Below are positions 1 to 28,876 of a DNA stretch of 32,000 nucleotides, piece by piece. How positions within the stretch are numbered: position 1 is the stretch's first letter; every line of letters starts with the position of its first letter. Under the pieces are notes generated by a model, which was given only the letters and a program-made list of their open reading frames with translations, made no database searches and was not told the origin of the DNA. This DNA is from Trichodesmium erythraeum IMS101 (lineage in GTDB: Bacteria > Cyanobacteriota > Cyanobacteriia > Cyanobacteriales > Microcoleaceae), in contig NC_008312.1 in assembly GCF_000014265.1 (NCBI RefSeq), positions 1,710,001 through 1,742,000 of the forward strand, in the 5' to 3' direction. The translations under genes were made by a program, and so were the position numbers.

Positions 1-1734
1 GATGATAAATCTTCCTTTTAAATCTGGAAGAACCTTTATTTCATCAAGCACCTTGTATAATTCTGAATACTGCTCCCAGTCGTATGACTGACCATTGCAT
101 AACAACCAACCTTCAGGGGCTGTTAAACCTGCATAAGGAACAATTGTCCCTACAGGAACGACCCAGCCAGTGCTATCTTTAATTCGTCCACACCCAACTT
201 CTAGGTTACCTTCCTGATCAAGCAGCATCTGTGTGCGACCCCCATCACCAGGGGTTGTACTTGTTTCTTCATGACTACCTCCTAGATACCAAGCAAAGTA
301 TCCGTTTGTTCGGAAATAAGTGGTATTGCCTTGTGTTCCAACTCCATACTCTGGACCCCATAAGTTAATTCTTTGTCCAGTCTGACCACTTTTGGCAGGA
401 AATTGCAAATCACCGCGCGATGTTAATTCCATCAAGGGTAAGTCATTTTTCTGTTTATAAAATTTGACAGATATATCATCATTTGATGTATCGGTATCAG
501 ACCGAAAAATCAAAGTGCCCGTGTGGTTAATTTCCCCTGGAGCATCTAGACTAATCCCATCTTTCACGGTGAGAAGTCCATCTAATGATTTGTTGGTTCC
601 TATGCGGACTTTCTCATCAAAAACTAAGGGAGCTTTTTCAATTTGACAAACAAATTGTCCGTCTCGGTAACCATCAATATATTGATAGCGTAAATACAGG
701 TTAGTCTCTCCTGTGGGGTGCGCTGTAGTAATACCATCCAAGTTAATTAACAAGGTTTCTTGCGAGTTTAAGACCACATCAGATTCTTGAGGAATAAACG
801 TCCATTCCAAAGCCTTAGTTTGACCGTTAACCTGAATTTCTTCCGGACCATCACTAAGTTGCTGCCAATTATTAATAGTAATATTAACACCATTGACATC
901 ATCTTGAGTACCTAATGCCCAAGGAACCGAATCTTTATCTCCTACTTCTAAAACAATCACTAACTGAGAACATTGATCCGAGTTTGCATTATAATTAAAG
1001 GTAATTGCTGAGTTATCTGCATTTGAAAGATTTGTGTTAGTAATTCGCAGTTGCAGACGGCTATTGTTATCGTGGGTATTGAAAACTTTATTAGAACCCA
1101 CAAAACCGACATAGAGAGGGATGTTAGATTTTCCAGATGTTTTTTTCATTTCTAATGTTAGGGTAGTTGTTGTATCATACGAATCATCTTGTCCAGGGAA
1201 TTTAACTTCCGCTATGCTAATGTTTTTCTCTCCAATTATCCAGTTAATGTTGACATCAGCGACTGCTCTGGCGCTAGCACTGTTATTAGCCAAATCAATA
1301 ACCTCTGTTAAGATAGCCTCTGTAGCACTGTTATTAGCCAAACCAGCAACCCCTGTTAAGATAACCTCTGTTTCTTGACCAGGGTTGAGGATTATTGGTG
1401 CTTCTGTCCACAATAAATACAAACACACATAGTTAGGATCTGTTTTGATATAAAGTGACCAACTTTCGGTTTCTTCAATCTTAATTTGGTCGGGATCAGC
1501 TAAAATTCCTGGCTGAAACGTTAATTTAAAATGATAATGTTCAGCACTAGCTATCGTTACCTCTGGAATGGAAGCAATTGTGATAACCTTATCAGAAAGA
1601 GTATTTCTGAGACCAATATGGAGTGGGGTAACTGTCTCAGGTGTTCCTAACAGTAAACATTGGCAATATTCTTCCTCATCTTCGTCTTCTGGCTCATAAC
1701 ACCAGAAAAACTCAAACGGCATTATGGGTGACAT
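1..1734 (-). CDS. Tail-fibre-like protein with C-terminal phage tail-collar domain. The 5' end is complete and the 3' end runs off the left window edge (at least 578 aa).
   Basis: Absent from the ORF track because it has no stop inside the window. I scanned all + strand triplets in frame 1 (1-3 ... 1732-1734) for TTA/CTA/TCA, the minus-strand stops, and found none. ATG at 1734-1732 has GAAGGA about 10 nt upstream; the in-frame upstream stop is at 1755-1753. The translated end, VPVGTIVPYAGLTAPEGWLLCNGQSYDWEQYSELYKVLDEIKVLPDLKGRF, fits the Phage_Tail_Collar (PF07484, MdpB-type) pattern G.I..fag...P.GWl.CdGq...y..L...lPDLrGRf. Confidence 0.85.
   Translation of the reverse strand, partial: MSPIMPFEFFWCYEPEDEDEEEYCQCLLLGTPETVTPLHIGLRNTLSDKVITIASIPEVTIASAEHYHFKLTFQPGILADPDQIKIEETESWSLYIKTDPNYVCLYLLWTEAPIILNPGQETEVILTGVAGLANNSATEAILTEVIDLANNSASARAVADVNINWIIGEKNISIAEVKFPGQDDSYDTTTTLTLEMKKTSGKSNIPLYVGFVGSNKVFNTHDNNSRLQLRITNTNLSNADNSAITFNYNANSDQCSQLVIVLEVGDKDSVPWALGTQDDVNGVNITINNWQQLSDGPEEIQVNGQTKALEWTFIPQESDVVLNSQETLLINLDGITTAHPTGETNLYLRYQYIDGYRDGQFVCQIEKAPLVFDEKVRIGTNKSLDGLLTVKDGISLDAPGEINHTGTLIFRSDTDTSNDDISVKFYKQKNDLPLMELTSRGDLQFPAKSGQTGQRINLWGPEYGVGTQGNTTYFRTNGYFAWYLGGSHEETSTTPGDGGRTQMLLDQEGNLEVGCGRIKDSTGWVVPVGTIVPYAGLTAPEGWLLCNGQSYDWEQYSELYKVLDEIKVLPDLKGRFII
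1275..1370 (-). repeat. 2 x 48-bp in-frame tandem duplication inside the tail-collar gene
   Basis: TAGCACTGTTATTAGCCAAA recurs at 1275 and 1323 (offset 48). It encodes TEVILTGVAGLANNSA / TEAILTEVIDLANNSA. Confidence 0.85.
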
Positions 1735-2153
1735 AAACTTAGTTCCTTCATATTAGTTATAAGTTGTATAGTATGCTTGATGACACTATATTGTTATTCT
1801 TTGATTAAGTCAATAGAGCTGTCGCTAAACAGAGGGAAAAATCGCTCTAACTTAGACGGAGCAAAAGTTTTATTTTTCTTGTTTTCCAATAGCTACAATC
1901 TTTGCTGAACTTGGTTTTAGGTGATTTTTTAAGTGATAAAGCGACAAGTCTAATGCTCCCCTTATACTAAACTTAACCCAAACTTACATGGATCAGGAAT
2001 TACATAGGCTTTGGAGCTAGCTTCAGTGTTTCACGAATATAGCACTGACCGCAGTCTATAGCTTACCTATTCTATAATCTAGGCTTTAAATTGCTCTTAA
2101 CTTAAGCCAAATAAAATACATAGTACTCTAAGTTGACAGCAGCATTAGAATCT

Positions 2154-5100
2154 TTAGGTTAATTTAATGAGGGGGGCAAAGACGAAACTATTAGCGATCG
2201 CCTCAGCCTCATCCTCATTCATATCCACTTGATAAACATCCCAGCCCAAAGCGGCTAAAATCTTGTTACGTTGTTCATTACTGCCTACTGTTTGCATAAT
2301 TTTATTTCGTTTATTTTCTTCATCTAAGTTGGGATTAGGCACAAAGGGGGTACAAGACTCCCAAAGATAAGCATCCTCAACCTTTTCAGTCTCATACTGT
2401 AAATGTTCAACTCCAATTTCATGAGTTTTACCTGCTTTAGGGAGTTCTGCTGGTAGAATGCGGAAACCAAAGAACACATTCTCTATAAATTGCTTCCCAT
2501 TGACTTCAGGGGGTTTAATATGACCATTCACCATATTAGGTTCTCCCCAAGTAGAAGTGGATGCAAGTTTAGTGATAGGTTCAAACTTAAACTTGTCTTC
2601 TGCTCTTTCTCTGGAGTCTTTACAAATTGTCACCTTATGGGTAGTGTCCAATTCATTATTATCCACTCCCATTGAATTAATACCAAAATTAGTATCTGTA
2701 TTAATTTCTTTCTTCTGTTCTCCAACAAACGCTTGTTTTGTAGGAACTAAGCTATCAGTACTCATTTCAAAAACAGTGGGATTAATAATCCAAACTTCCT
2801 TTTGTTCTTCTTTTCTTGTTGGTTCAAGAACTTGTTTGACTAACCCATTAATAGAGGTGAGACTACAAACATTTTCGGGTTCAGGTAAAAAGGTGTCCTC
2901 AAACTCATCCCATTTAATGGGCACTGGATAAATGGAACTTTGATCCCCAATTTTAATAGTAACTTTGCACACAAAAACACGAAGCTCTAATTTACCGCCA
3001 AAGTCAGGGCCCCAGATATGAACCCCCATACCTAAACCTACCGAAAGTGCACCAACACCTACCCTGACAGAGCAGTAAACATTCACATCATAATGATAGG
3101 GTGCCCAACCGAGGAGTAAATCAAGTCCTGCCTCAAAATGGGCCCAAACTGACCCCAGTTGATAGCGAATGTCCATCAGTCCTCCGGCCATGATCCCGTG
3201 ACCACAGATAGCAAAATAAGCCTGAGCAGTAATATGGGAATGACTGTCAATTTGCCAATTCAAGCCCAGTCGAGGCACATTAGGGTAATAATCAGGCACT
3301 TGAAAGCGAGGATGATAACCCCCTTGAGTAAATACAAAATCACCCAAAAACCATAACCCGTAAGCAAAGCCACCCGTTAACCGACAATTGCGACTAAAGA
3401 TGTAGGAATTTTCCGTCAGTTGTCCTTGAATTAGAATCACCCCTTCCATTGGGTTGAAGCGGCCAGCGATCGCTAATTCCGCCATAGCGATCGGTTCATA
3501 ATTGTCTTTTAGTTTAGTGGGTAACATCATTGTGGCAATACCCAGTAAGTTAATTTCAAACTCATTCTGACTTATTCCCAGAGTAATTAACCCAAACCCA
3601 TCGACAATTTTACAGCCAGTAAATTTCAGTCCGAGCGCCCCAAACCCAGAGCCAATAGAGGGGGGAATATATTTATTTAAGGCCTCCAATTTTTCAGTAA
3701 TAATTTCTCCTGTTTGATCAGGATCAATTTTTTGAGGTCCTTTTAGAGCTTCAGTAACTAGGGGAAACTTTTTAATATCTTCAAGGGGCGGAATAATTAA
3801 GTCATGGTTATAGCCAAACCCACCAGAGATTCCGGTAACAAAGAAGAATGGGGGACCACCGAAGGGATAATCTGCTGCTAAATAGAGAAATAGGGCAAAT
3901 TGGTCACTATTCTGATAATCAGTAAAAGAACCAATAGCAGAAAGGGCTAAGGCAGGGCCAACTTTCTTTTGAAAACTTACAGTGACTATTCCTAAATATT
4001 CATCATAGTTGTTCTGCCCTTCTGCTCCATGTGCTACTAGGAAAGCACCCCCCATTTCCAAACTGCGGGTTTTTAATTCCAAACCAAAGCCATCAAGATT
4101 AAAGTGAGGCTTAAAAGCAGTTAAACCACTACTAATATACAGTCCATTTAGTGCCAGAGTAAAGCGAGAGACCTCAATAATAAATTTCGGGGTCAGACGC
4201 ATTTCGCCTTTTGTGTAAACTAGTCCTACTTTATCGAAGTAAAGCGGTCCAAAAGATTTTTGAATATTTAACCAAACCCCATTATCTGCTAGGGTAATTA
4301 CTCCATCTGAGCTGACGTTACCACTGTCATTATTTGTTGTTGTGGTCAAACTACGACTACCCCCTGCAGCAGTGGGAGGCGTTTTAACTAAAGGTAATAA
4401 CCAAGCTTGAACAAACTGAGCAATTTTTTTATAAACCAGTCCTACCTTTTGGAAGTAAAGCCGTCTAAAGAGTTTTTGAGTATTTAACCAAGCTCCATTA
4501 TCTGTAGGGGTAATTACTTCATCTGAACTGACCTTACCACTGACATTATTTGTTGTTGTGCTCAAACTACGACTACCCCCTGCAGCAGTGGGAGGCGTTT
4601 TAACTAAAGGTAATAACCAAGCTTGAACAAACTGAGCAATTTTGAAGTGTGCGCCAATACTTGCCCCTCTTTCTAGATTGTTAATAGAACTACAAGGGGG
4701 TTTAATTAGTAACTTGGTACCCAGTTCTTCTAGTAAGCTATTAATGGTTTTAACTTCTTTTTGTGTAAATTTTTGGAAGGAAACTAAAAATTCAAAAGCA
4801 AATTCACCTTCTAGGGAATTAGGGGGAAGTAAAGACCCGGCTAATGGAATATCACTCAAGGCAATTTCTGCATCAAAGCCAATGCTAAATAGCATTTTAT
4901 TTTGATTTCTTTGACCATTATTTGTGCTATTAATAACAAAAATAACATCCGAACCCAAAGAAAAATTCAACAATTCATCAGGAAATAGATCAGTTAATGA
5001 TGGACAAATTTCACTAACTAAATTTGATAAATTAACATTACCCAGATTTTGGTTAGCATTAGCATCTAATGAACCTACCACTAATTTAGTATTTTTACCG

Positions 5101-5477
5101 GATTCAGTTTTAGTTTGATAATCTAAACGAAAGACAAGAGCTCCTGTTGGTTTTATTGGAATTGATAAAGATCCCCCATATACACCTTTGTAATTATTTC
5201 CATTATCATCAGTTTTGATCTCAATTACCAGGCTACCACTGAGTTCTTTAGTGGTTAAGCCCTGGCCCTCATCTTGTTCAATGGCAATGGTAACACCTAA
5301 CGTAAAAGTAAAATTGTTCTGATCTTGGGTGCAGCTTGCTTGCCTAAGAGTAAAGATATCAATGGTATTTAAACTAACATCATCAAATAAAAACTCTGTC
5401 TGAATTAAATTAATAAAAGCTTGAATGTCATTTAGTCCTGCTACAATTTCAGCATCAATATTAGGAGATTTTTGCAT
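2154..5477 (-). CDS. Large (1107 aa) beta-rich hypothetical protein, possibly DUF6603-like in the C-terminal half
   Basis: Long uninterrupted ORF from the track. No signal peptide, TM helix or catalytic motif recognised. The motifs GGPPFFFVTGISGGFGYN and GGYHPRFQVPDYYPNVPRLG recall DUF6603-family proteins, from memory and unverified. GGGGAA lies about 14 nt upstream of the ATG. Confidence 0.85.
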   Translation of the reverse strand: MQKSPNIDAEIVAGLNDIQAFINLIQTEFLFDDVSLNTIDIFTLRQASCTQDQNNFTFTLGVTIAIEQDEGQGLTTKELSGSLVIEIKTDDNGNNYKGVYGGSLSIPIKPTGALVFRLDYQTKTESGKNTKLVVGSLDANANQNLGNVNLSNLVSEICPSLTDLFPDELLNFSLGSDVIFVINSTNNGQRNQNKMLFSIGFDAEIALSDIPLAGSLLPPNSLEGEFAFEFLVSFQKFTQKEVKTINSLLEELGTKLLIKPPCSSINNLERGASIGAHFKIAQFVQAWLLPLVKTPPTAAGGSRSLSTTTNNVSGKVSSDEVITPTDNGAWLNTQKLFRRLYFQKVGLVYKKIAQFVQAWLLPLVKTPPTAAGGSRSLTTTTNNDSGNVSSDGVITLADNGVWLNIQKSFGPLYFDKVGLVYTKGEMRLTPKFIIEVSRFTLALNGLYISSGLTAFKPHFNLDGFGLELKTRSLEMGGAFLVAHGAEGQNNYDEYLGIVTVSFQKKVGPALALSAIGSFTDYQNSDQFALFLYLAADYPFGGPPFFFVTGISGGFGYNHDLIIPPLEDIKKFPLVTEALKGPQKIDPDQTGEIITEKLEALNKYIPPSIGSGFGALGLKFTGCKIVDGFGLITLGISQNEFEINLLGIATMMLPTKLKDNYEPIAMAELAIAGRFNPMEGVILIQGQLTENSYIFSRNCRLTGGFAYGLWFLGDFVFTQGGYHPRFQVPDYYPNVPRLGLNWQIDSHSHITAQAYFAICGHGIMAGGLMDIRYQLGSVWAHFEAGLDLLLGWAPYHYDVNVYCSVRVGVGALSVGLGMGVHIWGPDFGGKLELRVFVCKVTIKIGDQSSIYPVPIKWDEFEDTFLPEPENVCSLTSINGLVKQVLEPTRKEEQKEVWIINPTVFEMSTDSLVPTKQAFVGEQKKEINTDTNFGINSMGVDNNELDTTHKVTICKDSRERAEDKFKFEPITKLASTSTWGEPNMVNGHIKPPEVNGKQFIENVFFGFRILPAELPKAGKTHEIGVEHLQYETEKVEDAYLWESCTPFVPNPNLDEENKRNKIMQTVGSNEQRNKILAALGWDVYQVDMNEDEAEAIANSFVFAPLIKLT
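4213..4644 (-). repeat. 2 x 216-bp (72-aa) in-frame tandem duplication inside the 1107-aa gene
   Basis: ACAAACTGAG occurs at 4411 and 4627, and TAAAC at 4216 and 4432 (offset 216 in both cases). The protein copies are KIAQFVQAWLLPLVKTPPTAAGGSRSLSTTTNNVSGKVSSDEVITPTDNGAWLNTQKLFRRLYFQKVGLVYK and KIAQFVQAWLLPLVKTPPTAAGGSRSLTTTTNNDSGNVSSDGVITLADNGVWLNIQKSFGPLYFDKVGLVYT. Confidence 0.95.
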
Positions 5478-5546
5478 AATTTTAGTTCCCCAAAAAGCAT
5501 GTTTTGATTGTTCATTTGTATCACATTATTAGCCTGTCTGATTCAT

Positions 5547-5566
5547 CTCACACCATTTGGTGTGAG
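5547..5566 (-). other. Perfect 8-bp stem / 4-nt loop hairpin in the spacer between the 1316-aa and 1107-aa genes
   Basis: CTCACACC attt GGTGTGAG. No U-tract follows on the minus strand, so it is more likely an RNA stability or processing element than a terminator. Confidence 0.4.
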
Positions 5567-5602
5567 GCTCAATAGCGACTTCAGCTAAATAGAATAGAAA
5601 GG

Positions 5603-5617
5603 TAGCCCAGAGGGCTA
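5603..5617 (-). terminator. Weak candidate intrinsic terminator just after the 1316-aa gene stop
   Basis: The minus strand reads TAGCCC tct GGGCTA followed by CCTTTCTATTCTATTT. The stem is only 6 bp. Confidence 0.3.
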
Positions 5618-5630
5618 GCCCACAAGTGAG

Positions 5631-8600
5631 TTATTCATCTGTGATGTTGGCTCGACTAAGTTGCAACCATCCTTCCAAGGCTTCTTGCATTTGAGTAAAT
5701 GTTGCTCTGGTGTTAATAGGTTTAATAGTTGCTCTTTCCGTCCATTCTTCCCCGTTCTCTGACTTAGTTAACGATACCCAAGACCAAGTTGCATTAGCTT
5801 CTGGAGATAAAGGCATGGCTAGTTCCCCAGAATTAGACAAAATGGGAGTAGAAAGGAAGTTCACCTCCATTTTCTCTAAGGCTTGGTTATAATGCTCGGA
5901 GGGTAAACGCAATTCTTGATTAGGTAAAACACCACAAGAAGCATGAACTAAGCCCCTGGGGTCAATTAACATTGTTACGCTTTGGGGTTCAGCATCCACG
6001 TTTTGCAGAAAGTGAACGATTCCCTCACTATCGGTAATAATGTTGTTACTATCTACTAAATTGCTTTGAGTGGCATAGAAGATATTGTTTTCATATTCAT
6101 AATCGCCCTCTATCCCGTTGGCCTTGGGTATTTCTTTCCAATAACCCACCAGTCCATCATTGAGTTGTTGATAATCCCCTAAGCGAATGGGAACTTGTAC
6201 TCCTGTAAAACCATAAGAAGGAAATTCATTTTCTTCCTGAACCAGAACCGTCGGATCACAAGCGGGTAAACCTTTTACCTCTAAACTAAAAGTGGCTCTA
6301 ACAATAGCCATCGGTCGTCCGACTAATAAGGCTAAACCGGTATTTTGAGCGAAACTTTCGGGGTCAATGGTTTCTAAGGCATTATCCACAGTAGAAAGAA
6401 ACTGCTGTTGAAAATCTTTCCCTTGTTCTAAAAGATGGTGAGCCAACTTCTGTAGATGATCATTTCCTAACAGAGGATAACCATTATGATCACGAGATAG
6501 TTTTACTCCTGGGGCATTACGCCAATTTCCCAGTAAATCAATGGAGCCCAAACTGCGACCTTGATTATCATAGATAGCTAGGTTACTATCCAAATTATTA
6601 GGAACAATCCAACCACAAACAGGTGTCCTGGCAGGGATTTTAGTATATTCAACTTCCTGTAAGGCATCTGCTGATAACCAATGGAAGTTAAGACGGGAGG
6701 ATTGAGCAATACGGGGAGGTAAAATGGCTTGATAATTCACAGAATTTTTATCGGCTGGGGTCATTTGATAAGTTGTGACAATTTTAGTATTCTGATTGGA
6801 ATCATTAACGACTTCTTGGTATTGTCCGAAGGTATCAATTAACCACAACTTCTTAACTGAAAATCCACCACTACGAATCGGGTTAAAAATATCACCTGAG
6901 AGAATTTTGTGTTGTAGCCTATTCCCTAAACTCCAACGCACTTGTTCTGTAACTAGTTGGCCAATATTATCAGTATCAAGGGGATCATCTACTTGTAGTT
7001 GTAGTGTCGGTTGTCCTAATAAAAGAGTATCATTGAAACCACCAAGCATTTGTGCCTGACAATCTAGTGTTTTCATCTTTCTATAAGCCCACAAAGCTAT
7101 AAAAGTAGGATCGGCTGCCTGTTGTTCTTGTATCTCTAATTGATTTTCCTCTTGATACCAGTTGGTAATTTCATCTAAATTATCATCCAAATAGTTTGAG
7201 GTTTGATCTTTTTCAGAAATATTATTTTTGGAGTAGTAATTAGGCAGTAATTGTTCATTGAGGTAAGTGCTCAGTCTTAGGATTAACTCTGTTCCCGCCG
7301 ATGGGGTTAAAATACTAAACCCACTGTACGTATTACCATTGGAGATAAAGCTGCTTTCTTTTCCATCTCTAAGTTTCAAATCAATGGCATTTTTTTGCAA
7401 CTCATAGTTATCCAAAATCTGATTAGAGTTATAGTCTTGAACTGTTGAAGACTCTATATCACGACAAGGATAGTTCAGAACGGACCAATGGAAAGCAAAA
7501 GGATTCCAAGGTTGTTGAGTCCAAGTGATGAAATTAATCGATTCTTTGCTCTCATCAGGTTGTAAGCTATTTATTTGATTCAGTAGATCCTGATGATTAT
7601 TGAGAATTTCTGTAATATCAAAATCTAAAGGAATACATTCCAATAAATCGTCATCGTGTAACCGTCCATCTTGTCCAAACCGTAGGGGTGATTTTGTCGA
7701 TTCCCCTGCTAATAAAATAACAGGATCATTGCCTCGCCAGTAACTTTGAGTTGGAAAGGTCCGAAGTTGATATTGAGTGGCTGAATTTTCGTTATAAGTT
7801 GTTATGGCTTGGGATAACTCATTAAGTTTCTTGACCAGATTAAAGGCAACTTGAGCCTCACTCGGTGGAATATAAATAGTAAAAATACCGCCTTCGACTT
7901 TGACAGGATAGGTTAGTCCATTATCTTGTATTTCCCATTCTTGATCATCAATAATCTTGGAGACAATTGGGCTATCCGATATTTCTACCCCACAGTTCTT
8001 AAATTCAACTTGTATGTCTTCCCATTTGTTAAAAGAGCTGTTAGTGGCTAGTTGCATAGTATCCACATAATTACTGAAATAAGTATTTAACCAAGATAGA
8101 ATGCCAAACGGTAAGGTTTTACTAGTAACTGTAGTGTTTCCTTTCTCGTCTTGAGTAAATTCTAATTCTCCCGTTTTAGCGATCGCTGTTCGTAAGGGAA
8201 TTAGACTTGTTTTATTGAATATCTGGTAAAAATTGGTAGGACTTGTTTTATGTGTAATAGAGTAATACCACTGAGTATACAAGCGATCGCGCAATGAACC
8301 AATATCTAACCAAGCCTGATTATAGTCTTCTTGGAGCGCGTTCAATTCATTTAATAACTGAGCAAGATGATCGGGAAGTAAATCTAAACTAGTTTTTGTG
8401 TTGGGTTGTTCGAGTTGGGAAGATCGAGGCATCAATAACCACAAAACACCCTCATTTTGTGCCCCAAATCCTCTTTCCTGTCGACCTTCTCGGAATTTAG
8501 CATCAAGATCCAGTTTTCGAGATTCCAAGCGCTCTGATAAATGTAACGTTTCTAAGGTATCCTGAATACTTTTACGGACAGTTTTTCCCGAGTCATTAGT

Positions 8601-9581
8601 ATCCCCATTAAATTCCTGGGCTAAATAAGCAGAAATAGCTTCTGAGTCTGAATTGCCAATGGCAAGAGTGGGTGTTTCCAAAGTTGGCCAATTCCCTGCC
8701 CCGGTAAAAGTTATGCGAGAATGATAAAGAGTGCGATGTAGTATATCTTTTACACCTTCAAAAGTCCAATAAAACTGCTCTTGTAGAGCTTGTAAGAATT
8801 CTTCAGCTGTTGTACAACTATTAGCTTCGACAAACTGTTTTAAACAGTCGTCTTCTGCATCACTATACCAACCAATTACATCATATTGTAAGTCTTTAGG
8901 AGGTGTATCAGTTTCAAAATCAGGATCATGAAACCCAAAAACACTATAACAGTTAGGATAAAAGGCTGCAAAGGTAGCTTTAACTTCATCAAAAATAGGG
9001 ATGGTTGCCTGGTTGCCCATAGCGGTTAATTCTTCAGCATATTCTGGGTTTTCACCACCTTCTTCTGGCCACTGACTTAATTCCCAACATTTCCCCATAT
9101 AACGATACCGTTGGTATTGATAAGTATCAGGCTTTTTGGGATCAACGGTTGCTAGATCAGGGGGTTGAATGAGAATATTAATGGCATTTGGTGGACTACT
9201 ACTACTATCATTCGGATCTAACTCAGGGTATAAATAGTCACTTTCAATAACCCAAGTTTTCTCTTCTGTTTCTCCCCCTTTACGTACAATTAACCAACGG
9301 TTGGGAACTACTGGAAAAGTTGTTCCATTACTGTCGTGCTGTCCATTTGTTAGAGCATCAGGTAAAGACCAATGGAGATGGATTCCTTTTTTCAGGGTAA
9401 ATTCGTGGTTAAATAATGGGCCTAAAGCTGTTTTACTTAAATTTTCGCTTCCTGAGTTGTAAGTATGCTCCTTATATTTATAAGGCAATAACGTATAGTC
9501 AACCATAGCTCTGACAGCTTGTTTATCCTCTTTTAAACATAGAGCATCAGTATGGATAGGAACTAGTAAGGTTTTACTCAT
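5631..9581 (-). CDS. Very large (1316 aa) hypothetical protein, no recognisable domain
   Basis: Long ORF from the track. The N-terminal motif is HLHWSLPDAL...FPVVPNRWLIVR. I found no Walker A, HExxH, signal peptide or TM segment. It shares strand and locus with the two genes downstream. Confidence 0.85.
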   Translation of the reverse strand: MSKTLLVPIHTDALCLKEDKQAVRAMVDYTLLPYKYKEHTYNSGSENLSKTALGPLFNHEFTLKKGIHLHWSLPDALTNGQHDSNGTTFPVVPNRWLIVRKGGETEEKTWVIESDYLYPELDPNDSSSSPPNAINILIQPPDLATVDPKKPDTYQYQRYRYMGKCWELSQWPEEGGENPEYAEELTAMGNQATIPIFDEVKATFAAFYPNCYSVFGFHDPDFETDTPPKDLQYDVIGWYSDAEDDCLKQFVEANSCTTAEEFLQALQEQFYWTFEGVKDILHRTLYHSRITFTGAGNWPTLETPTLAIGNSDSEAISAYLAQEFNGDTNDSGKTVRKSIQDTLETLHLSERLESRKLDLDAKFREGRQERGFGAQNEGVLWLLMPRSSQLEQPNTKTSLDLLPDHLAQLLNELNALQEDYNQAWLDIGSLRDRLYTQWYYSITHKTSPTNFYQIFNKTSLIPLRTAIAKTGELEFTQDEKGNTTVTSKTLPFGILSWLNTYFSNYVDTMQLATNSSFNKWEDIQVEFKNCGVEISDSPIVSKIIDDQEWEIQDNGLTYPVKVEGGIFTIYIPPSEAQVAFNLVKKLNELSQAITTYNENSATQYQLRTFPTQSYWRGNDPVILLAGESTKSPLRFGQDGRLHDDDLLECIPLDFDITEILNNHQDLLNQINSLQPDESKESINFITWTQQPWNPFAFHWSVLNYPCRDIESSTVQDYNSNQILDNYELQKNAIDLKLRDGKESSFISNGNTYSGFSILTPSAGTELILRLSTYLNEQLLPNYYSKNNISEKDQTSNYLDDNLDEITNWYQEENQLEIQEQQAADPTFIALWAYRKMKTLDCQAQMLGGFNDTLLLGQPTLQLQVDDPLDTDNIGQLVTEQVRWSLGNRLQHKILSGDIFNPIRSGGFSVKKLWLIDTFGQYQEVVNDSNQNTKIVTTYQMTPADKNSVNYQAILPPRIAQSSRLNFHWLSADALQEVEYTKIPARTPVCGWIVPNNLDSNLAIYDNQGRSLGSIDLLGNWRNAPGVKLSRDHNGYPLLGNDHLQKLAHHLLEQGKDFQQQFLSTVDNALETIDPESFAQNTGLALLVGRPMAIVRATFSLEVKGLPACDPTVLVQEENEFPSYGFTGVQVPIRLGDYQQLNDGLVGYWKEIPKANGIEGDYEYENNIFYATQSNLVDSNNIITDSEGIVHFLQNVDAEPQSVTMLIDPRGLVHASCGVLPNQELRLPSEHYNQALEKMEVNFLSTPILSNSGELAMPLSPEANATWSWVSLTKSENGEEWTERATIKPINTRATFTQMQEALEGWLQLSRANITDE

Positions 9582-9599
9582 AACTTTTTTAGGTTTTAT

Positions 9600-9912
9600 T
9601 TATAGTTTACTTATTAACATTGAGTGTGATGGACCAGAGAACATTGAAAAAAGACTGAAATAATTAGTGCCAAATTTTAATTTGATCTCAGGTACGGTTG
9701 CCTGATTTTTAATAGCGGTTAATTCCTCAGGATATTCCTTATTTCCGCCTTCAAGCCACTGCCATAAATTTCCAACATTTCCCCAACAAGACCGTTGGTG
9801 ATAAGTATTGGGATTATTGGAATCAATGGTTGCCAGTAATAGAAATTACATGAGAATATAAATGGCATTTAGTAGAACACTATTATTCCTCGACTCTAAG
9901 TCAGAATATAAA
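9600..9912 (-). pseudogene. Decayed fragment of a paralogue of the 1316-aa gene (equivalent to about aa 115-225)
   Basis: The minus-strand translation YLYSDLESRNNSVLLNAIYILM*FLLLATIDSNNPNTYHQRSCWGNVGNLWQWLEGGNKEYPEELTAIKNQATVPEIKLKFGTNYFSLFSMFSG aligns with YLYPELDPNDSSSSPPNAINILIQPPDLATVDPKKPDTYQYQRYRYMGKCWELSQWPEEGGENPEYAEELTAMGNQATIPIFDEVKATFAAFYPNCYSVFGF of the intact gene. It contains an in-frame stop and ends exactly at the IS boundary. Confidence 0.75.
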
Positions 9913-10940
9913 TAGAGTTGTTGGGAAATAAGGTAAAATAATTTCAGAAAAAATTTGCCATAAAAATGCTAAATATTGAACGAGCCTTAAAACAAGACAG
10001 ATTACTCAGAGCATTAACACCCATTAAACCGTAAAGCATTTGAATCTTTGTTGGAGTCCTTTGGGCAAATGTATGAGCAAACATTGCACTCGCTCACCTC
10101 GTCAACGCTCTGTTGGAGGAGGTCTTTTGGCTCGTTTACGCACTCTACAAGACAAATTGTTTGACATTCTCTTCTACTTTAAATGTTACCCGACTTTTGA
10201 CTTAGCTGGTATCTTGTTTGATATCGACCGTAGTCAAGCACATTATTGGGTTCATCGCTTACAAACTATGTTAGAAGCAGCCTTGGGAGAAAAAAAGGCG
10301 CGATGCATTGCGTCAAATTAACAGTGTCCAAGGATTCATAGAGCGTTTCCCTCGAGTAGAACGAGTGATAATGGATGGCACAGAACGGCCAGTACAAAGA
10401 CCAACTCACTCTGAAAAACCAAAACTGAATTATTCAGGAAAAAAAAAGCGTCACACTCGCAAACATCTAGTAGCAGTTAATCAAAACAAGAAAGTGCTGG
10501 TATTGAGTCAGGCACGAGAAGGAAAGCTGCATGAAGTCGAAGTTCCATGACCAGGAAAAATTGATAGGAAATATACCTCTAGAGATTCCGATAGAAGTAG
10601 ACAGTGGTTTCCAAGGTCTCCACGCATCAGTATGAAAATATCCGAATCCCCCATAAAAAACCAAAAGGGGGAGAGTTAAGTGAGCAACAAAAACAGATTT
10701 TCGGAAATTGAGTCAATCAAGGGTAGTCTGTGAAAACGCCTTCGCGGGCGTCAAGCGTTATGGAGCTGTCAGTCAGATTTATCGTAATCACAAGTATGAT
10801 TTTGATGACAAATTAATGCTAACAGCAACTGGTGAGTGGAACTTATATCTGATGACAGCATAAGTAGTCAAATTACTAGGGAAATATGTCAAGTTTTCGT
10901 TTGAGTTTTTTCTCTCCTAAGTTATTTCCCAACAACTCTA
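9913..10940 (+). mobile_element. IS5-family-like insertion sequence (Harbinger/DDE_Tnp_4-type transposase), inactivated
   Basis: Perfect 19-bp terminal inverted repeats: TAGAGTTGTTGGGAAATAA (9913-9931) and TTATTTCCCAACAACTCTA (10922-10940). The outer TA could instead be a 2-bp target duplication. The repeats enclose a single broken transposase gene. Confidence 0.85.
9965..10863 (+). pseudogene. IS5-like DDE transposase with several frameshifts and stops
   Basis: Homologous pieces lie in different frames. They are MLNIERALKQDRLLRALTPIKP*, LRTLQDKLFDILFYFKCYPTFDLAGILFDIDRSQAHYWVHRLQ, VIMDGTERPVQRPTHSEKPKLNYSGKKKRHTRKHL, IPIEVDSGFQGL, QYENIRIPHKKPKGGELSEQQKQ and VVCENAFAGVKRYGAVSQIYRNHKYDFDDKLMLTATGEWNLYLMTA*. 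Track ORFs 10040..10321 and 10308..10550 are fragments of it. Confidence 0.85.
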
Positions 10941-11595: not shown

Positions 11596-13065
11596 ATGGT
11601 TACAACACCATCATTCAAGCCAACTTACGAACAAAACACTTTTAAATTATCACCTACAGCAACAACAACAACGTTGCCTTGGAATAATACCTCACTGCCC
11701 ACAACACCCCTATTTGGGACAGATGGCATTCGGGGCAAAGCAGGAGAATTACTCACCGCCCCTATGGCCCTACAAATAGGTTTTTGGGCAGGACAAGTAT
11801 TGCCCCAATATTGTCAAAATCCTGGCCCGATAATTATGGGTCAAGATACTAGAAACTCAGGTAATATGCTGGCAATGGCTCTCTCAGCAGGTTTGACAGC
11901 AGCAGGGTTAGAAGTTTGGAATTTAGGTTTATGCCCTACCCCTTGTGTTGCCTATATCACAAGTATTTCAGAAGCAATAGGCGGAGTAATGATTTCCGCT
12001 AGTCATAACCCACCCGAAGATAATGGAATAAAATTTTTTGGTTCCGATGGTACAAAACTCTCTTCAGAATTACAGCAAAAGATAGAATCTGGAATTCGAG
12101 GTACCGCAAATTTTCCTACCAATCATAGTAACTGGGGACAGCATTACCATAGACCAGAATTAGTCAAGGAGTACCAAGCATCTCTACATTCTCCATTAAC
12201 ACCAGGATCTCTCCAGGGAATGAAAATAGTTCTAGACTTAGCTTGGGGAGCAGCAGTTCATACTGCCCCAGAAGTTTTTCGAGGAATGGGGGCAGAAATT
12301 ATTTGTTTGCATGACCAACCCAATGGCGATCGGATCAACGTTAACTGTGGTTCTACCCATCTGTCTCACCTCCAACAAGCAGTAATAGAACATAATGCTA
12401 ATCTAGGGTTTGCCTTTGATGGAGACGCAGACCGAGTATTAGCAATAGATTCTCAAGGTCGTTCTATTGATGGAGATTATATACTCTATTTCTGGGGTCA
12501 AAGCTTAAGTAAAGCAAGGTTACTACCAAACAATTTGATTGTAACTACAGTTATGGCAAACTTAGGTTTTGAACACGCTTGGAACAAACAGGGTGGAAAA
12601 ATATTACGGACAAAAGTAGGAGACCAATATGTTCATGCTGAAATGCAGCGCACCGGATCTATGCTAGGCGGAGAACAATCAGGACATGTTCTTTGTCCCC
12701 ACTATGGCATTACAGGAGATGGTCTAATGACGGCCTTACATTTGGCAACCCTAGTCAAAAATTCTGGAATTTCTCTAGCAGAGTTAGTAGACCAAAGCTT
12801 TAAGACCTATCCCCAATTGCTCAGAAATGTTAGAGTTGAAGACCGCGATCGACGGGCCAACTGGAAAAACTGCGAACCATTAGTCAAAACTATAGAAGAA
12901 GCAGAAACAGCCTTAGCAGATTTGGGACGAGTATTAGTCCGAGCCTCTGGTACAGAGCCGGTAATTCGAGTCATGGTAGAAGCTATTAATCTAGAACTAG
13001 CAAAATCTTGGACAGAAAATATAGTTTTAGCAGTCCAGCAGCATTTATTACCTACTAAAGACTAA
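11596..13065 (+). CDS. glmM: Phosphoglucosamine mutase
   Basis: [11 protein letters not shown]; phosphoserine loop [15 protein letters not shown]; metal loop FDGDADR; sugar loop GGEQSGH. It has an N-terminal extension of about 40 aa, so the exact start is uncertain. Confidence 0.9.
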
Positions 13066-13361: not shown

Positions 13362-14966
13362 ATGCCAAAAAAACAAAAGTCTCAAAAGAAATTAAAAAAG
13401 AAAGGCAAACCTGCTACTCCCCAGATTAGCAAAAAGAAATTAGCTGCTAGGAAGCGCAAACGAGCCAAACAAATTCAGCAATTTATTGGTTCCTTGGCAA
13501 CTTATGGTGGTCTTGGTGCCATCATTGGTCTTGTATTATTTTTTGTTGCAGAACCAAAAATAGGCCTTGCTGGTGGTTTTGGTCTGGCAGTTTTAGCTCT
13601 TTCTTTTAAATATCCAATGTTGGGACTTTGGGGATTTCTAATGTATTTGCCCTTTGCTGGTACTGTTACTTACTGGGTAGGTGACGGAGGTCCTATATTT
13701 CAGCTAGCCAAAGATGGGTTTTATATTCCTGCAATCATTGCTATTAGTTTGTGGTGCAAAAAGACAGGAAATCCATTCATTATTCCCAAATCAATAAAAA
13801 ATCCCCTGTATGCTTTATTGGGCTTGTGTCTCATAACTTTATTCTTAGTTAATGGTGTACAACACTTTAACCCTCCCCAACCAGGAGATAAGGCAATTCC
13901 TATGGGAATATTGGGACTCAAAGTCATGATCGGCTACTTACCTCTGATCACGGGGGCTTATTATCAACTCAAAAGTAAAAAAGAGTTATTATTTGTTGCC
14001 CGTCTGACACTAATACTAGCTATTATCTGTTGCTTACTAACTATCGTACAATACCAATACCTTTCTTCTGGTAAGTGTAACGGTACTAGGGGTCAAACTG
14101 GAGACGCACTATTTAAGGCAAGCTTAGAAGCTAAATGTTTGGTAGGAGGTGCTCTAGTATTTAGTCCTAGTCAAGGCATGATTCGTTTACCAGGTACTTT
14201 TGTTGCACCTTGGCAGTGGGGATGGTTCTTGATTTCTAATGCTGCGTTTACCTTTGCAGTTGCTTTTAGTGACCCTTCTTCCCTCTGGCGAATGGGAGGG
14301 TTATTTGGTATGGCAGTAGTTTTTATTAATGCAGCTATTAGCGGTCAAAGAATTGCTTTAGCTTTAGTTCCCACAACAACAATAATACTCTTAATCTTAA
14401 CAGGTCAGCTAGCTAACTTTAAACGGTTGATACCCATTGGAGCTGGACTAGCTGTTATACTAGGAGGTCTAATAGTATCTAATCCCGTAATTGTTCAAGA
14501 GCGGATAAATAGTTTTGTTGGTCGCTGGAATGCTTCACCGCCAACTGCTTTTATTTCAGAACAATTTGAGCAGTCTAATCATGCACAAAAAGGGTTTTTT
14601 GGTATCGGTCTTGGACGGGCTACTAATTCAGCCCGAGTTTTTGGTAAAACTAAATTAATTGAAACTTATTATCCTAAGTTAATCTATGAAATAGGACCTA
14701 TAGGCACAATAGCAATGTTAGTTCTATTAACAAATATTACTGTTAGTACTTTTAAAGCTTATCGCTCAGTTAAAGATAAAAACATGCGCAGTTTAGGTGC
14801 AAGCTATTGGGTTTTTGTTCTCATAATTAGTTATAACACTTATTATTACCCTCTTGATGTAGATCCAGTTGCAGTTTATTACTGGTATTTTGCTGGAGTC
14901 ATTATGAAACTGCCAGAAATTGATAAAATTGAACAGATAAAACTTAAAGAAGCTGAGGAAAATTGA
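13362..14966 (+). CDS. Polytopic membrane protein, O-antigen ligase/polymerase (Wzy_C)-like, with a Lys/Arg-rich N-terminus
   Basis: 534-aa ORF with about 10 or more hydrophobic segments and a basic N-terminal tail (MPKKQKSQKKLKKKGKP...). It sits beside glycosyltransferase genes. The family assignment is by context and topology only. Confidence 0.5.
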   Translation: MPKKQKSQKKLKKKGKPATPQISKKKLAARKRKRAKQIQQFIGSLATYGGLGAIIGLVLFFVAEPKIGLAGGFGLAVLALSFKYPMLGLWGFLMYLPFAGTVTYWVGDGGPIFQLAKDGFYIPAIIAISLWCKKTGNPFIIPKSIKNPLYALLGLCLITLFLVNGVQHFNPPQPGDKAIPMGILGLKVMIGYLPLITGAYYQLKSKKELLFVARLTLILAIICCLLTIVQYQYLSSGKCNGTRGQTGDALFKASLEAKCLVGGALVFSPSQGMIRLPGTFVAPWQWGWFLISNAAFTFAVAFSDPSSLWRMGGLFGMAVVFINAAISGQRIALALVPTTTIILLILTGQLANFKRLIPIGAGLAVILGGLIVSNPVIVQERINSFVGRWNASPPTAFISEQFEQSNHAQKGFFGIGLGRATNSARVFGKTKLIETYYPKLIYEIGPIGTIAMLVLLTNITVSTFKAYRSVKDKNMRSLGASYWVFVLIISYNTYYYPLDVDPVAVYYWYFAGVIMKLPEIDKIEQIKLKEAEEN

Positions 14967-15762: not shown

Positions 15763-16743
15763 ATGAATTTACCATCAATTTCCGTTGTTATTCCTACCTA
15801 CGGGCGGGAGGAACCTCTAATAGATACGATCGCTGATGTTATTAAACAAGACTACCCTAATTTTGAAGTTTTAGTAGTTGACCAAACTGGGACTCATAAA
15901 CCAGAAACTCAAGTTTATCTGGAAAAACAAGCTAATGCTGGTAGGATAAAATTGTTCCGCCTGACTTGGGCCAGCCTACCAGGAGCAAGGAATTATGCAG
16001 TCAGACGTTGTAGTGGCGAAATCATCCTTTTTATTGATGATGATGTACGTTTGCAAAAAGGATTTTTGGCGGCTCATGCTGGTAACTATATTGATCGCCC
16101 AGAGATAGGAGCAGTGGCAGGACGAGTATTTGATCGCATGAAATTAGGAGATTCTGGTGGAGAGTTGGAAATAGAAGATTTACCTCCAGAAGCGTCTGAC
16201 CCTGGTATTGCTTGGTATCATATAGATTTGGTACATACGGTTAAAGCTCAACGAGTCATCTCAGCAAGAGGGTGCAATATGTCATATCGCCGAGAAGTTT
16301 TTACTAAATATGGTTTGAGTTTTGATGAGCGGTTTCGTGGCAGTGCAGTAAGGGAAGAGTCTGATTTTTGTTTGAGGTTACGACGAACTGGCTATCACAT
16401 TTGGTTTGACCCAGAAGCTTCTTTAGTTCACTTGGGTGAAGAAAGTGGGGGTTGTCATGATATTTCTACAAGGTCTCTCAAATATCAAATTACTTTTTAT
16501 CACAATCACTTTTTTATGGGATTAAAAAATCTCACTCCTCATCAATGTCTGCGTTTTTTTGGCAAATTATTTGATTGTCATGTGTTGGGGAACCCCCCTT
16601 GTTACAAAAGTGGTTCTCCTATAAAAATAATTACTCGCGGCGGTTTCTATATTCTTGGTTTTTTTAGTGCTGTTCAAACAAGGATTAAATCTATTTGGGA
16701 TGACGGGCAAATTTATACAAAAAAAGTCAACACTCAAGAGTAA
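15763..16743 (+). CDS. Family 2 glycosyltransferase
   Basis: ISVVIPTYGREEPLIDTIADVIKQDYPNFEVLVVDQ and FIDDDV (the DxD region) are typical of Glycos_transf_2. AAGGA lies upstream of the ATG. Confidence 0.85.
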   Translation: MNLPSISVVIPTYGREEPLIDTIADVIKQDYPNFEVLVVDQTGTHKPETQVYLEKQANAGRIKLFRLTWASLPGARNYAVRRCSGEIILFIDDDVRLQKGFLAAHAGNYIDRPEIGAVAGRVFDRMKLGDSGGELEIEDLPPEASDPGIAWYHIDLVHTVKAQRVISARGCNMSYRREVFTKYGLSFDERFRGSAVREESDFCLRLRRTGYHIWFDPEASLVHLGEESGGCHDISTRSLKYQITFYHNHFFMGLKNLTPHQCLRFFGKLFDCHVLGNPPCYKSGSPIKIITRGGFYILGFFSAVQTRIKSIWDDGQIYTKKVNTQE

Positions 16744-16891
16744 TAATTCAAGAAACTCAAAAATTAAATAAAATTGTTTAAGAGTAGATCGCATAAGGTC
16801 GATCTTTATGGTTTTAAGCAAATACTAGAATTGTATAACCTGATTTTAGATAACAGTTTTTTTCAGCTTACTTGTAAAGATGAATTAAAAC

Positions 16892-17728
16892 TTATTTCTT
16901 AAGTTTTCTCTGTAAGGCTTTTCGAAAATATACAGTTTGCTGGAAAATCATCTGTAATTTGGATGTAGACCACAATGATTTTTTTAAATATAATTCATAT
17001 ATATTTTTCCGTTGATCAGATATCCAAAAATACCAAGGTTTTGAAGAACCAATATAATGTATAATTCTAGCATTTTTCAAAGCGATATTGTCATCAGGTT
17101 TTTGAATTTTTCTTGGGCTTAAGTCCACTTGAAAATTCCATTTCCGATCAATTATTAAGTAATTCTGTTTGATTACACGATTTAAAGCGCTTTGGTCGTG
17201 GTATGGCAGCTTATCTCTATTTTTAGTTGCAAAATCAATTACTTTTGTTGAAATTTGTTCATTTCTCCATTTTTCTAAGTTAACAACCATAACACCACTA
17301 TTAAAACCTTTACTTTTTACCAAAGTGCCAGAAAATCCTGAAGCAGCAATAAAGTAATTTTCTAGATCAATATTATATAGTTCTTCTAAGGGAGAAATTA
17401 CAACAACATCAGAATCTAAATAAAGAACTTTATCTATATGCTTAGGGAGAATTTCAGCCATTATTAATCTATAATAAGTTGCATTGGAAACATGATCAGA
17501 TACTTTTAATTTGCTAATTTTATCAAGGTTATTGATTATATATAAATGAAATGAACATTTATAATTTTTACTCAGCGTATCTAATTTTTGTTTTAGTTTT
17601 TCTTCCATAAAATTTGTGATTATATGTACATCAAAATGACTAGATAAATTATTTAATAATACAGAAGTGATTGCTACACCGAAGTGTTGTTGATAGTTTT
17701 GATCAAAACAAAATAATAGATTCATCAT
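16892..17728 (-). CDS. Family 8 glycosyltransferase (LPS galactosyl/glucosyltransferase-like)
   Basis: FDQNYQQHFGVAITSVLLNN, YYRLIMAEILPKHIDKVLYLDSDVVV, FNSGVMVVNLEKWR and HDQSALN fit the Glyco_transf_8 pattern. Confidence 0.85.
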   Translation of the reverse strand: MMNLLFCFDQNYQQHFGVAITSVLLNNLSSHFDVHIITNFMEEKLKQKLDTLSKNYKCSFHLYIINNLDKISKLKVSDHVSNATYYRLIMAEILPKHIDKVLYLDSDVVVISPLEELYNIDLENYFIAASGFSGTLVKSKGFNSGVMVVNLEKWRNEQISTKVIDFATKNRDKLPYHDQSALNRVIKQNYLIIDRKWNFQVDLSPRKIQKPDDNIALKNARIIHYIGSSKPWYFWISDQRKNIYELYLKKSLWSTSKLQMIFQQTVYFRKALQRKLKK

Positions 17729-18099
17729 TCTTCTCTTTTATGCCCTGATATTTCTATAATCATCTTATCATAATAATAAAATATTCAGGCGGTTTTAAGG
17801 TAGGAGCAAGGAGGCAGAAGGAACAATAGTTAGAGCTATTTTTTTGAAAAGTATGTGATTTGATAAGAATTTAAGATTCCTATTTTGGAGCTAGGTTATG
17901 GCCCTAGATTTTCATATATAGTTAAATTTGATTCTAACTAAGGTTTGTTGATTAAATATCTGATAAATGTCCAACTATATATATATATATCAATTTGGTT
18001 TTTTTGTCAAAAAAAATGTGTCAGCTTTTTACTCCAAACTAACTCAATTTTGAGCTACAATTCCTATAAATATATCTTCTAAATCACAAAAAAATAACT

Positions 18100-21336: not shown

Positions 21337-21413
21337 ACCTAATACCTAAAACCTAAAACCTAATACCTAATACCTAATACCTAATACCTAATACCTAAAA
21401 CCTAATACCTAAC
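21337..21413. repeat. Heptanucleotide tandem repeat, 11 units of ACCTAAT/ACCTAAA (STRR-like)
   Basis: Units were read directly from 21337 to 21413. The tract is preceded by CCACCTA CCACCTA. The CHAT gene stop (21395-21397) and its last 5 codons lie inside the tract. Confidence 0.95.
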
Positions 21414-27599: not shown

Positions 27600-27666
27600 C
27601 AACCATTCCTTTCTTATAGGTTCATTTATAATGATACTTCAATAAAATCAAAAAATCTACAAAAAA

Positions 27667-28806: not shown

Positions 28807-28876
28807 AATCAAATTTTCCTTCTTGATAACTTTGTCTATAATTATATTTCTACAAAATTGAAATTGACACAACAAT

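Follow-up and report, generated by a model that had tools for sequence, protein, structure and literature searches.

A conserved four-gene module with a chimeric fibre in Trichodesmium erythraeum and its relatives: a candidate fibre-targeted delivery complex

A stretch of 32,000 nucleotides from Trichodesmium erythraeum IMS101 (contig NC_008312.1, positions 1,710,001 to 1,742,000; the window hereafter, with positions counted from its first letter) carries three genes of a four-gene module, P1 to P4, whose fourth gene lies just past the left window edge. P1 is a large orphan protein, P2 belongs to the DUF6603 family, P3 is predicted to be a fibre with a phage-type receptor-binding tip, and P4 is another orphan. 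We tentatively interpret the module as a new, non-phage-tail, fibre-targeted complex for the delivery of a toxin or enzyme, an interpretation whose chances we put slightly under even. The module is not described in the literature that we searched; what it does we infer from the lines of evidence laid out below.

Conservation and Synteny

The case that the four genes belong together comes from their relatives. A DUF6603-anchored scan of one genome per species returned at least 577 stretches with a relative, and the best 80 of these made up our synteny sample. The 80 loci derive from Cyanobacteria, Chloroflexota (Herpetosiphon), Acidobacteriota, Bacteroidota, Actinomycetota, Myxococcota, Verrucomicrobiota, KSB1, Gemmatimonadota, Gammaproteobacteria, and a cable bacterium, so that the module spans at least 10 phyla, and the carrier lineages consist for the most part of large-genome bacteria that are filamentous, gliding, or predatory. 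By tblastn, 67 of 72 loci have a P4 homologue as the next gene downstream of P2, and 58 of 62 have one of P1 upstream; a homologue of the P3 N-terminal region (P3 residues ~40-400) is present in 53 of 62. The commonest gene order is P1-P3-P2-P4, seen in 48 loci; in the window locus and those closest to it, the order is P1-P2-P3-P4. Fusions tie the genes together as well: a metagenomic protein (P0146) is an end-to-end P2-P3 fusion whose P3 part is 40% identical over the whole length, and an actinomycete locus (L077) has P2 and P4 in one open reading frame (ORF). Outside the module, the related loci contained no conserved genes, only generic histidine kinases and unrelated genes. A model that had read the window from its letters alone (the original prediction) treated the three giant genes found there as one locus, and synteny across phyla and the fusions bear this out. 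P1 to P4 belong together as a self-contained conserved module, and because fusions and synteny suggest as much, the four proteins may also form one complex.

The core proteins share a set of general properties. All four are acidic, and none has an NTPase, a transmembrane (TM) helix, or a signal peptide; hhalign comparison of the P1, P2, P3, and P4 families revealed no internal paralogy. For the proteins in the window, the highest Kyte-Doolittle mean over 19 residues is 1.36, i.e., no TM helix, the N-termini are unlike signal peptides, and neither a Walker A nor an HExxH motif occurs, in agreement with the earlier impression that signal peptides, TM helices, and NTPase and protease motifs are all lacking.

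Two other loci deserve separate mention. Another Trichodesmium genome (L021, Trichodesmium sp. MAG_R04) holds a second, divergent pair of a long P2 (1545 aa) and a P4 (803 aa), so the genus has more than one subtype. A Bacillota megaplasmid (L084, Paenibacillus polymyxa plasmid p-YT9A, 27546-37662) has a DUF6603 gene with three large genes for hypothetical proteins (714, 1050, and 504 aa) after it, and ~7 kb upstream stands a 1033-aa gene annotated "phage baseplate assembly protein V" together with a GH-E nuclease and an ankyrin gene.

The Module in the Window

The three large ORFs reported in the original prediction are present on the minus strand, the third (1-1734, 578 aa) being cut by the window edge. 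Exact-sequence look-up identifies P1 and P2 as Tery_1093 and Tery_1092, and P3 is Tery_1091 by position. An identical 13.4-kb contig (L001) reveals the sequence past the left edge, where P3 reaches its full length of 671 aa and P4 (Tery_1090, 657 aa) follows on the same strand after 158 bp; beyond P4 there is only insertion sequence (IS) debris. The parts of the module that lie in the window are as follows, with tandem repeats called by Tandem Repeats Finder (TRF).

5631..9581, minus strand: P1 (Tery_1093), core orphan protein, 1316 aa (ORF)
2154..5477, minus strand: P2 (Tery_1092), DUF6603 protein of the short subtype, 1107 aa (ORF and Pfam)
2754..4265, minus strand: DUF6603 domain (PF20248), P2 residues 405-908 (Pfam)
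4209..4643, minus strand: 216-bp in-frame tandem duplication, P2 residues 279-422 (TRF)
625..1734, minus strand: predicted system-specific N-terminal domain of P3 (Tery_1091), residues ~1-370 (tblastn, alignment A7)
151..624, minus strand: predicted fibre stalk of P3, residues ~371-528 (family profile against PDB)
1..150, minus strand: start of the predicted tail-collar receptor-binding tip of P3, residues 529-578, the rest up to 671 lying past the edge (Pfam, PHROG, PDB)
1275..1371, minus strand: 48-bp in-frame tandem duplication in the P3 N-terminal domain (TRF)

P3 Is a Predicted Chimeric Fibre

Sequence comparison portrays P3 as a fibre built from a system-specific N-terminal domain, a trimeric-fibre stalk, and a phage-type receptor-binding tip that can be swapped. 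The N-terminal ~370 residues are the portion conserved across phyla, and they have no PDB or Pfam match; the protein starts with MSPIMPFEFFWCYEPEDEDEEE and has no hydrophobic leader. Its other end was recognized in the original prediction as a tail-collar motif, and Pfam agrees, placing Collar (PF07484) on residues 529-577 with E 3e-13 and adding a weak Gp10_C match (0.0028). PHROG tail collar fibre families match with E down to 7e-21 and cover residues 481-671 only, and the tip finds a short tail fibre (9cuy, 1e-9) in PDB. The phage-like part of P3 is the last ~190 residues only, and NCBIfam gave no match for the protein. Between the two ends, the stalk has one VxIGT...L.V.G capping-loop-like motif and one ~60-aa "YFRT..F.WY.GGS" module, which occurs repeatedly in the fusion protein P0146. 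The 48-bp duplication that had been noticed in the letters is real: its unit occurs twice, with the copies 89% identical and in frame upon translation.

The tip is also the part that changes. Among P3 relatives it may be Collar/Gp10_C, a Peptidase_S74 chaperone, or nothing recognizable, and some relatives have an N-terminal LamG domain. The nearest relative of the window locus (L004) is 74, 72, and 77% identical in P1, P2, and P4, respectively; its P3 is only 58% identical in the N-terminal part, and the tip has been replaced. Replacement of this kind is the behavior of a receptor-binding protein in an arms race.

For the stalk there are structural parallels. The P3 family profile (A7) matches the Bdellovibrio bacteriovorus MAT fibre structures 8ond, 8oml, 8ol4, 8ojn, and 8on4 with E from 4e-12 (8ond) to 8e-6, a result that belongs to the family profile; the P3 of the window itself has a short stalk only. 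Like the MAT fibres described by Caulton et al. (2024, PMC10769870), the P3 family has stalk repeats with a capping-loop motif of the V-G-x-x-x-x-P-x-x-x-L type and mosaic, exchangeable tips, the S74 chaperone included. Unlike them, P3 lacks a signal peptide and has its own ~370-aa N-terminal domain tied to P1, P2, and P4, in place of the ~130-aa beta-rich N-terminal domain of MAT fibres.

A phage-type tip invites the idea of a phage tail, and the original prediction had suggested that genes of a contractile-injection-like system might lie beyond the left edge. That the module is a contractile injection system (CIS), a tailocin, or a prophage tail with its remaining genes outside the window now seems very improbable to us. 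Homology of the P3 tip to phage tail-collar fibres speaks for such an origin, as does the top Foldseek row for the model of a P1 homologue, a chain of the Anabaena CIS baseplate that is not significant (E 0.18, probability 0.04). However, the P3 gene does not sit in a phage or tail cluster: past the left edge there is P4 and then IS debris, and the right flank has no tail genes. Pfam and PHROG searches of the locus and the 80 related loci likewise turned up no conserved sheath, tube, baseplate wedge (gp25/gp6-like), VgrG/PAAR spike, or AAA+ ATPase, and P1, P2, and P4 showed no PHROG, Pfam, or Foldseek connection to tail proteins. A scan of IMG/VR viral contigs with P2 and P4 profiles gave no relatives, and tblastn of P2 against 50,697 phage genomes gave no match. 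What the module does share with extracellular CIS (eCIS), tailocins, and type VI secretion systems is a tail-fibre tip of phage type, variable effector genes beside conserved structural genes, and the absence of secretion signals. The lineages in which eCIS are found are biased in a similar way, toward cyanobacteria, Bacteroidota, actinomycetes, Chloroflexota, and myxobacteria.

A Hypervariable Enzyme Slot Linked to the P2 N-Terminus

The delivery interpretation draws its payload from the relatives, most of which have one or two extra genes between P3 and P2. The 63 proteins encoded in this slot fall into at least 21 clusters that are unrelated by BLAST. Pfam assigned them the following domains.

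Metallo-beta-lactamase (MBL) fold (Lactamase_B): 13
Endonuclease/exonuclease/phosphatase, EEP (Exo_endo_phos): 7
Subtilase (Peptidase_S8): 5
LamG: 3
Class-3 lipase (Lipase_3): 2
EF-type adenylate cyclase (Anthrax_toxA): 2
Peptidase_S74, extra fibre paralogues: 2
GNAT: 1
Methyltransferase: 1
HNH: 1

No adaptor domain or terminal motif is shared among the slot enzymes, and only the EEP clusters link together. Occupancy goes with the size of P2: of 51 loci whose P2 has at least 1200 aa, 46 contain a non-fibre slot gene, versus 2 of 14 whose P2 is shorter (Fisher p 1e-7). The first ~280 aa of the long P2 proteins are themselves hypervariable, forming at least 16 clusters, and they track the slot gene type (adjusted Rand index 0.39, permutation p < 2e-4). 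A Herpetosiphon locus (L019) illustrates this. Over its full length, its P2 N-terminus can be aligned with P2 from eight loci. The long MBL-type enzyme is shared by seven of them, from four phyla, and the contig of the eighth, L077, lacks the region upstream of P2. Since the slot gene type tracks the adjoining P2 N-terminus, the variable cassette is a contiguous block made of the enzyme gene and the 5′ end of P2. The suggestion of target recognition and polymorphic-toxin-like logic in the original prediction fits this slot of the relatives, and the window locus itself belongs to the short-P2 subtype without an enzyme gene.

Herpetosiphon aurantiacus DSM 785 has two complete copies of the module ~25 kb apart (L019 and L042, CP000875 2418488-2468976). 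They differ in their slot genes, an 807-aa long MBL-type protein versus a 394-aa protein, and in their P2 N-termini.

The same slot can be read as the effector position of an intracellular conflict system. Under this explanation, which is the main rival and which we consider unlikely while granting it a real minority chance, P1, P2, and P4 would sense infection and trigger a swappable effector (nuclease, protease, lipase, or cyclase) in anti-phage defence or abortive infection, and P3 would be a sensor or decoy for phage components. Swappable effectors without a neighboring immunity gene are typical of defence, and PADLOC models of MBL effector domains, namely those of Lamassu LmuA (1.5e-14), DRT, and Avs1a, match the slot enzyme of MBL type. 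All module proteins lack export signals, the patchy cross-phylum distribution and the IS debris at both borders suggest mobility, and a TPR-CHAT and DUF4384 cluster stands ~12 kb away in the window. Against this, P1 to P4 of Trichodesmium and three Herpetosiphon proteins (L042 P1, L019 P2, and L019 P4) have no match among the 5027 models of PADLOC-DB 2.0, and the core contains neither an NTPase or nucleic-acid-binding domain nor the SMC, STAND, or reverse transcriptase components of the Lamassu, Avs, and DRT systems that it resembles in its MBL-type effector and its variable effector without an immunity gene. P3, moreover, bears the marks of an extracellular trimeric adhesin (tail-collar, Gp10_C, LamG, S74 chaperone, and MAT-like stalk) with fast tip swapping, and we know of no defence system with an adhesin-type fibre component of this sort. 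EF-type cyclases are classic toxins that need a host cofactor, which also sits poorly with defence. Finally, a whole subtype, the window locus included, has no effector gene, and the module was not found in the phage and IMG/VR collections (searched with P2 in both and with P4 in IMG/VR).

P2 and P1, Candidate Structural Components

The original prediction had proposed DUF6603 as a family to look for in the 1107-aa protein, and PF20248 indeed matches P2 with 390.9 bits (cut-off 27) and E 1.1e-116. Outside this domain, P2 has no other match in Pfam, NCBIfam, PADLOC, PHROG, or PDB searches. DUF6603 is a family without known function; neither this name nor PF20248 or IPR046538 is mentioned in the literature searched. 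The structure model of P2 consists almost entirely of long beta-hairpins, with low confidence (predicted local distance difference test score, pLDDT, 68; predicted TM-score, pTM, 0.45). Foldseek matched this model only with generic large beta-barrels and sheets (SlpA, ushers, LptD, and ApoB) at a TM-score of ~0.1, which we do not take as homology, so the model describes P2 as a huge antiparallel sheet and nothing more specific. Because the residues that are invariant across phyla are mostly Gly, Pro, and aromatic, the sequence suggests a structural protein rather than an enzyme.

A further feature of P2 is the 216-bp in-frame duplication, which had been noticed in the letters and which TRF and translation confirm. 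The two copies are 90% identical in DNA and correspond to residues 279-350 and 351-422, with 59 of 72 residues identical. They run from the last part of the N-terminal domain through a disordered linker (pLDDT <50 at residues 297-391) into the first strands ahead of DUF6603. The duplication is missing in homologues of 72-88% identity, and it is specific to this lineage because close homologues have ~1039-1052 aa. In Okeania sp. SIO3B5 (L005), the P2 homologue (7164-10559) has an independent tandem duplication in the same linker, which appears to be a recurrent expansion site. The Okeania locus also has a 161-aa ORF (6517-7002) between P1 and P2 which, judged by eye, resembles a transposase of the IS200/RAYT type (HVHMLIHP motif).

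P1 can be divided into a conserved N-terminal part (residues 1-440), a variable insert (~440-603), and a conserved C-terminal part (604-1316). It has more than 600 homologues, every one annotated as hypothetical, and neither the single sequence nor the family profile matches anything in Pfam, NCBIfam, PADLOC, PHROG, or PDB sequences. For its structure we used a full-length homologue (P0089, 1186 aa, 38-41% identical to P1 of the window) with a 61-sequence alignment. The resulting model is confident (pLDDT 83.5, pTM 0.83), and Foldseek found no significant neighbor for it in PDB (best E 0.18) or BFVD (best E 1.1).

P4 and Expression of the Module in Trichodesmium

The gene downstream of the window's three is the conserved partner P4. 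It has no match in Pfam, PADLOC, PHROG, or PDB sequences, alone or as a family profile, and its family comprises 5,228 clusters at 50% identity among 1.84 billion representatives, 2,929 of them with E 1e-30 or better. The proteins of the module fall in no well-described family, and their genes are syntenic elsewhere. By sequence, the module's memberships in known families amount to DUF6603, the tail-collar tip, and the MAT-like stalk of P3 only.

Proteomics of IMS101 by Walworth et al. (2016, PMC4931248) detected both P4 (Tery_1090) and P3 (Tery_1091), and each of the three comparisons involving Fe/P co-limitation showed both to be raised. In supplementary files 3-5 of that study, Tery_1091, with the annotation "phage tail Collar", has spectral counts that are fairly high (~24-59); the paper itself discusses Tery_1090 only and reads it as an EzrA-domain protein that reduces cell size under Fe/P co-limitation (PMC4931248).

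We could not reproduce the EzrA annotation. PF06160 did not match P4 even at E up to 10, the P4 family profile retrieved no PDB chain at E up to 10 and hence no EzrA structure, and P4 has no TM anchor.

That P4 shrinks the cell as published, with functionally unrelated neighbors, therefore has very little chance of being right in our estimation. The rise of Tery_1090 only under Fe/P co-limitation, when cells shrink, agrees with it (PMC4931248). To the lack of any EzrA match must be added, however, that P4 is locked to DUF6603 genes across phyla, being fused to one in L077, and that the fibre Tery_1091 is co-induced with Tery_1090.

Induction of P3 and P4 under Fe/P co-limitation would also suit a cell-surface adhesion or structural apparatus for filaments, colonies, prey attachment, or gliding, with no toxin involved and with slot enzymes acting as accessory surface hydrolases for nutrient scavenging. 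P3 resembles adhesive fibres, the hosts are mostly filamentous, gliding, or colony-forming, and the slot enzymes are mostly hydrolases. We nevertheless find this explanation improbable: signal peptides, anchors, and TM segments are missing, adenylate cyclase, GNAT, methyltransferase, and HNH slot genes are ill-suited to scavenging, and the linked variation of slot gene and P2 N-terminus points to a cognate pair of payload and carrier.

A Proposed Delivery Mechanism

We return to the interpretation of the module as a fibre-targeted delivery complex. The module would build a large complex of several subunits; assembly would take place in the cytoplasm, and the complex would act on other cells. 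P1, P4, and P2, the last as a very large antiparallel beta-sheet protein, would make up the conserved body, to which P3 would dock through its conserved ~370-aa N-terminal domain. P3 would then project a trimeric fibre whose exchangeable tip, a tail-collar in this case, binds a receptor on the target-cell surface. The extra gene adjoining P2 in most lineages would encode an exchangeable enzyme payload, which the cognate extension at the P2 N-terminus would hold and which would reach the target after export or release. In the short-P2 form of Trichodesmium, the core itself would need to supply any activity, and the most plausible source would be the beta-sheet-rich P2, serving as a pore or shell.

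Similar principles are known from Tc (ABC) toxins and polymorphic toxins. Tc toxins also have several very large subunits without NTPases or classical export signals, and the absence of NTPase, TM helix, and signal peptide together with the acidity of P1 to P4 recalls self-assembling toxin complexes. The proposed architecture is Tc-like as well, with one part for receptor binding, one large component rich in beta-sheet, and an enzymatic payload that can be exchanged. The likeness is one of logic only. VRP1, SpvB, RHS, and TcA_TcB_BD domains are absent from the module by Pfam, and the top Foldseek matches include no Tc or RHS protein; the variable enzyme has its own gene, which co-varies with the P2 N-terminus, and is not the C-terminal end of an RHS cocoon; and receptor binding is assigned to a separate trimeric fibre. 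Polymorphic toxins (Rhs and CDI) resemble the module in having a conserved delivery part and a hypervariable enzymatic part from many unrelated families. They differ in that the variable part of the module is a separate gene plus an N-terminal, not C-terminal, segment of the core, that no adjacent immunity gene was recognized in L014 and L019, and that the core has no known trafficking domain.

A number of points weigh against a delivery complex. No lysis or secretion genes are conserved beside the module in the related loci, and its secretion, assembly, and toxicity are what we infer. The spacing in L014 and L019 is too tight for an immunity gene beside the enzyme gene, an absence that fits equally well with an abortive-infection effector inside the cell and with a toxin that is sequestered or directed at eukaryotes, and the resemblance of the MBL-type slot enzyme to defence effectors counts on the same side. 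With no enzyme gene at the window locus, what is proposed about the payload does not apply there directly. The P2 model is of the low confidence given above, with barrel-like matches at a TM-score of ~0.1. The statistics for co-variation of slot and P2 are uncorrected for shared ancestry, and ORF calls in high-GC loci are approximate.

A wider formulation goes further than the delivery complex itself. P1 to P4, with or without a slot enzyme, may constitute an unrecognized class of fibre-targeted delivery complexes, without homology to Tc toxins, phage tails, or secretion systems of any kind and present in thousands of lineages, in which the DUF6603 N-terminus is the cognate enzyme carrier and the Trichodesmium version is a stress-induced, payload-free, pore-forming core. 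Taken whole, we put this forward with reserve, as a doubtful possibility with chances well below even.

Borders and Surroundings of the Locus

The noncoding features of the locus and its upstream border are listed below.

1735..2153, minus strand: P2-P3 gap, 419 bp, with a promoter-like site inside
5603..5617, minus strand: small weak terminator-like hairpin between P1 and P2, six pairs with a poor T-tract
9639..9914, minus strand: decayed P1-like gene fragment corresponding to P1 residues ~111-215 (tblastn, blastx)
10040..10863, plus strand: degenerate IS bordering the module upstream, split into several ORFs, with the frame-broken HTH_Tnp_4 and DDE_Tnp_4 transposase at 10040-10550

The gap and the hairpin had been cited as reasons to doubt co-transcription. 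Both exist, but terminator-like matches in the window are not in excess of shuffled sequence (10 vs 9.2 +/- 3.7). The promoter-like site in the gap reads TTGACT-17-TATAGT (1813-1785), and the count of promoter-like matches in the window is not above the shuffled expectation either. In L004 the P2-P3 gap is ~125 bp. The decayed P1 paralogue that had been noted upstream is there, as a relic of ~100 codons that is 43-44% identical to P1 (E 6e-12 to 4e-15); the match with E 6e-12 is 43% identical and covers P1 residues 116-215. As for the reported IS insertion, a broken IS element is present, but it sits upstream of the locus and interrupts none of its genes.

Farther to the right, past the P1 fragment and the IS remnant, comes a phosphoglucomutase/phosphomannomutase-family gene (11596-13065), followed on the plus strand by a 534-aa ORF (13362-14966) without a Pfam or PADLOC match. 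Three glycosyltransferases (GT2, GT8, and GT1) occupy 15763-19266 in a low-GC stretch (27-31% vs 36-43% elsewhere) and may be a horizontally acquired polysaccharide locus. A 143-aa protein at 20081-20512 on the minus strand has HTH_23, HTH_32, and HTH_28 as its only domains and is probably an N-terminal transposase fragment, further IS debris of the region. The TPR-CHAT protein has 1507 aa (21395-25918, minus strand), with TPR repeats and a CHAT protease domain, and beside it are DUF4384 proteins at 26814-27602 and 28000-28875, both on the minus strand; by appearance, this is a cluster of conflict-system type. An Rfam scan of the window gave nothing.

Significance

If the module is a fibre-targeted delivery complex, it would be a new kind of bacterial machine built around three large orphan proteins and widespread among bacteria. 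It would represent a delivery principle beside contractile systems and Tc toxins, with natural retargeting through its tips and payload exchange through its slot enzymes, both of which would be of engineering interest. DUF6603 would acquire a function, and a Trichodesmium protein published as a cell-size regulator would need to be re-interpreted. Under the rival reading as intracellular defence, the module would still be a new conflict system, one typical of multicellular and predatory bacteria. Trichodesmium is a marine nitrogen fixer of global importance, and a delivery complex in it would direct attention to an antagonism or stress response that is so far unexplored.

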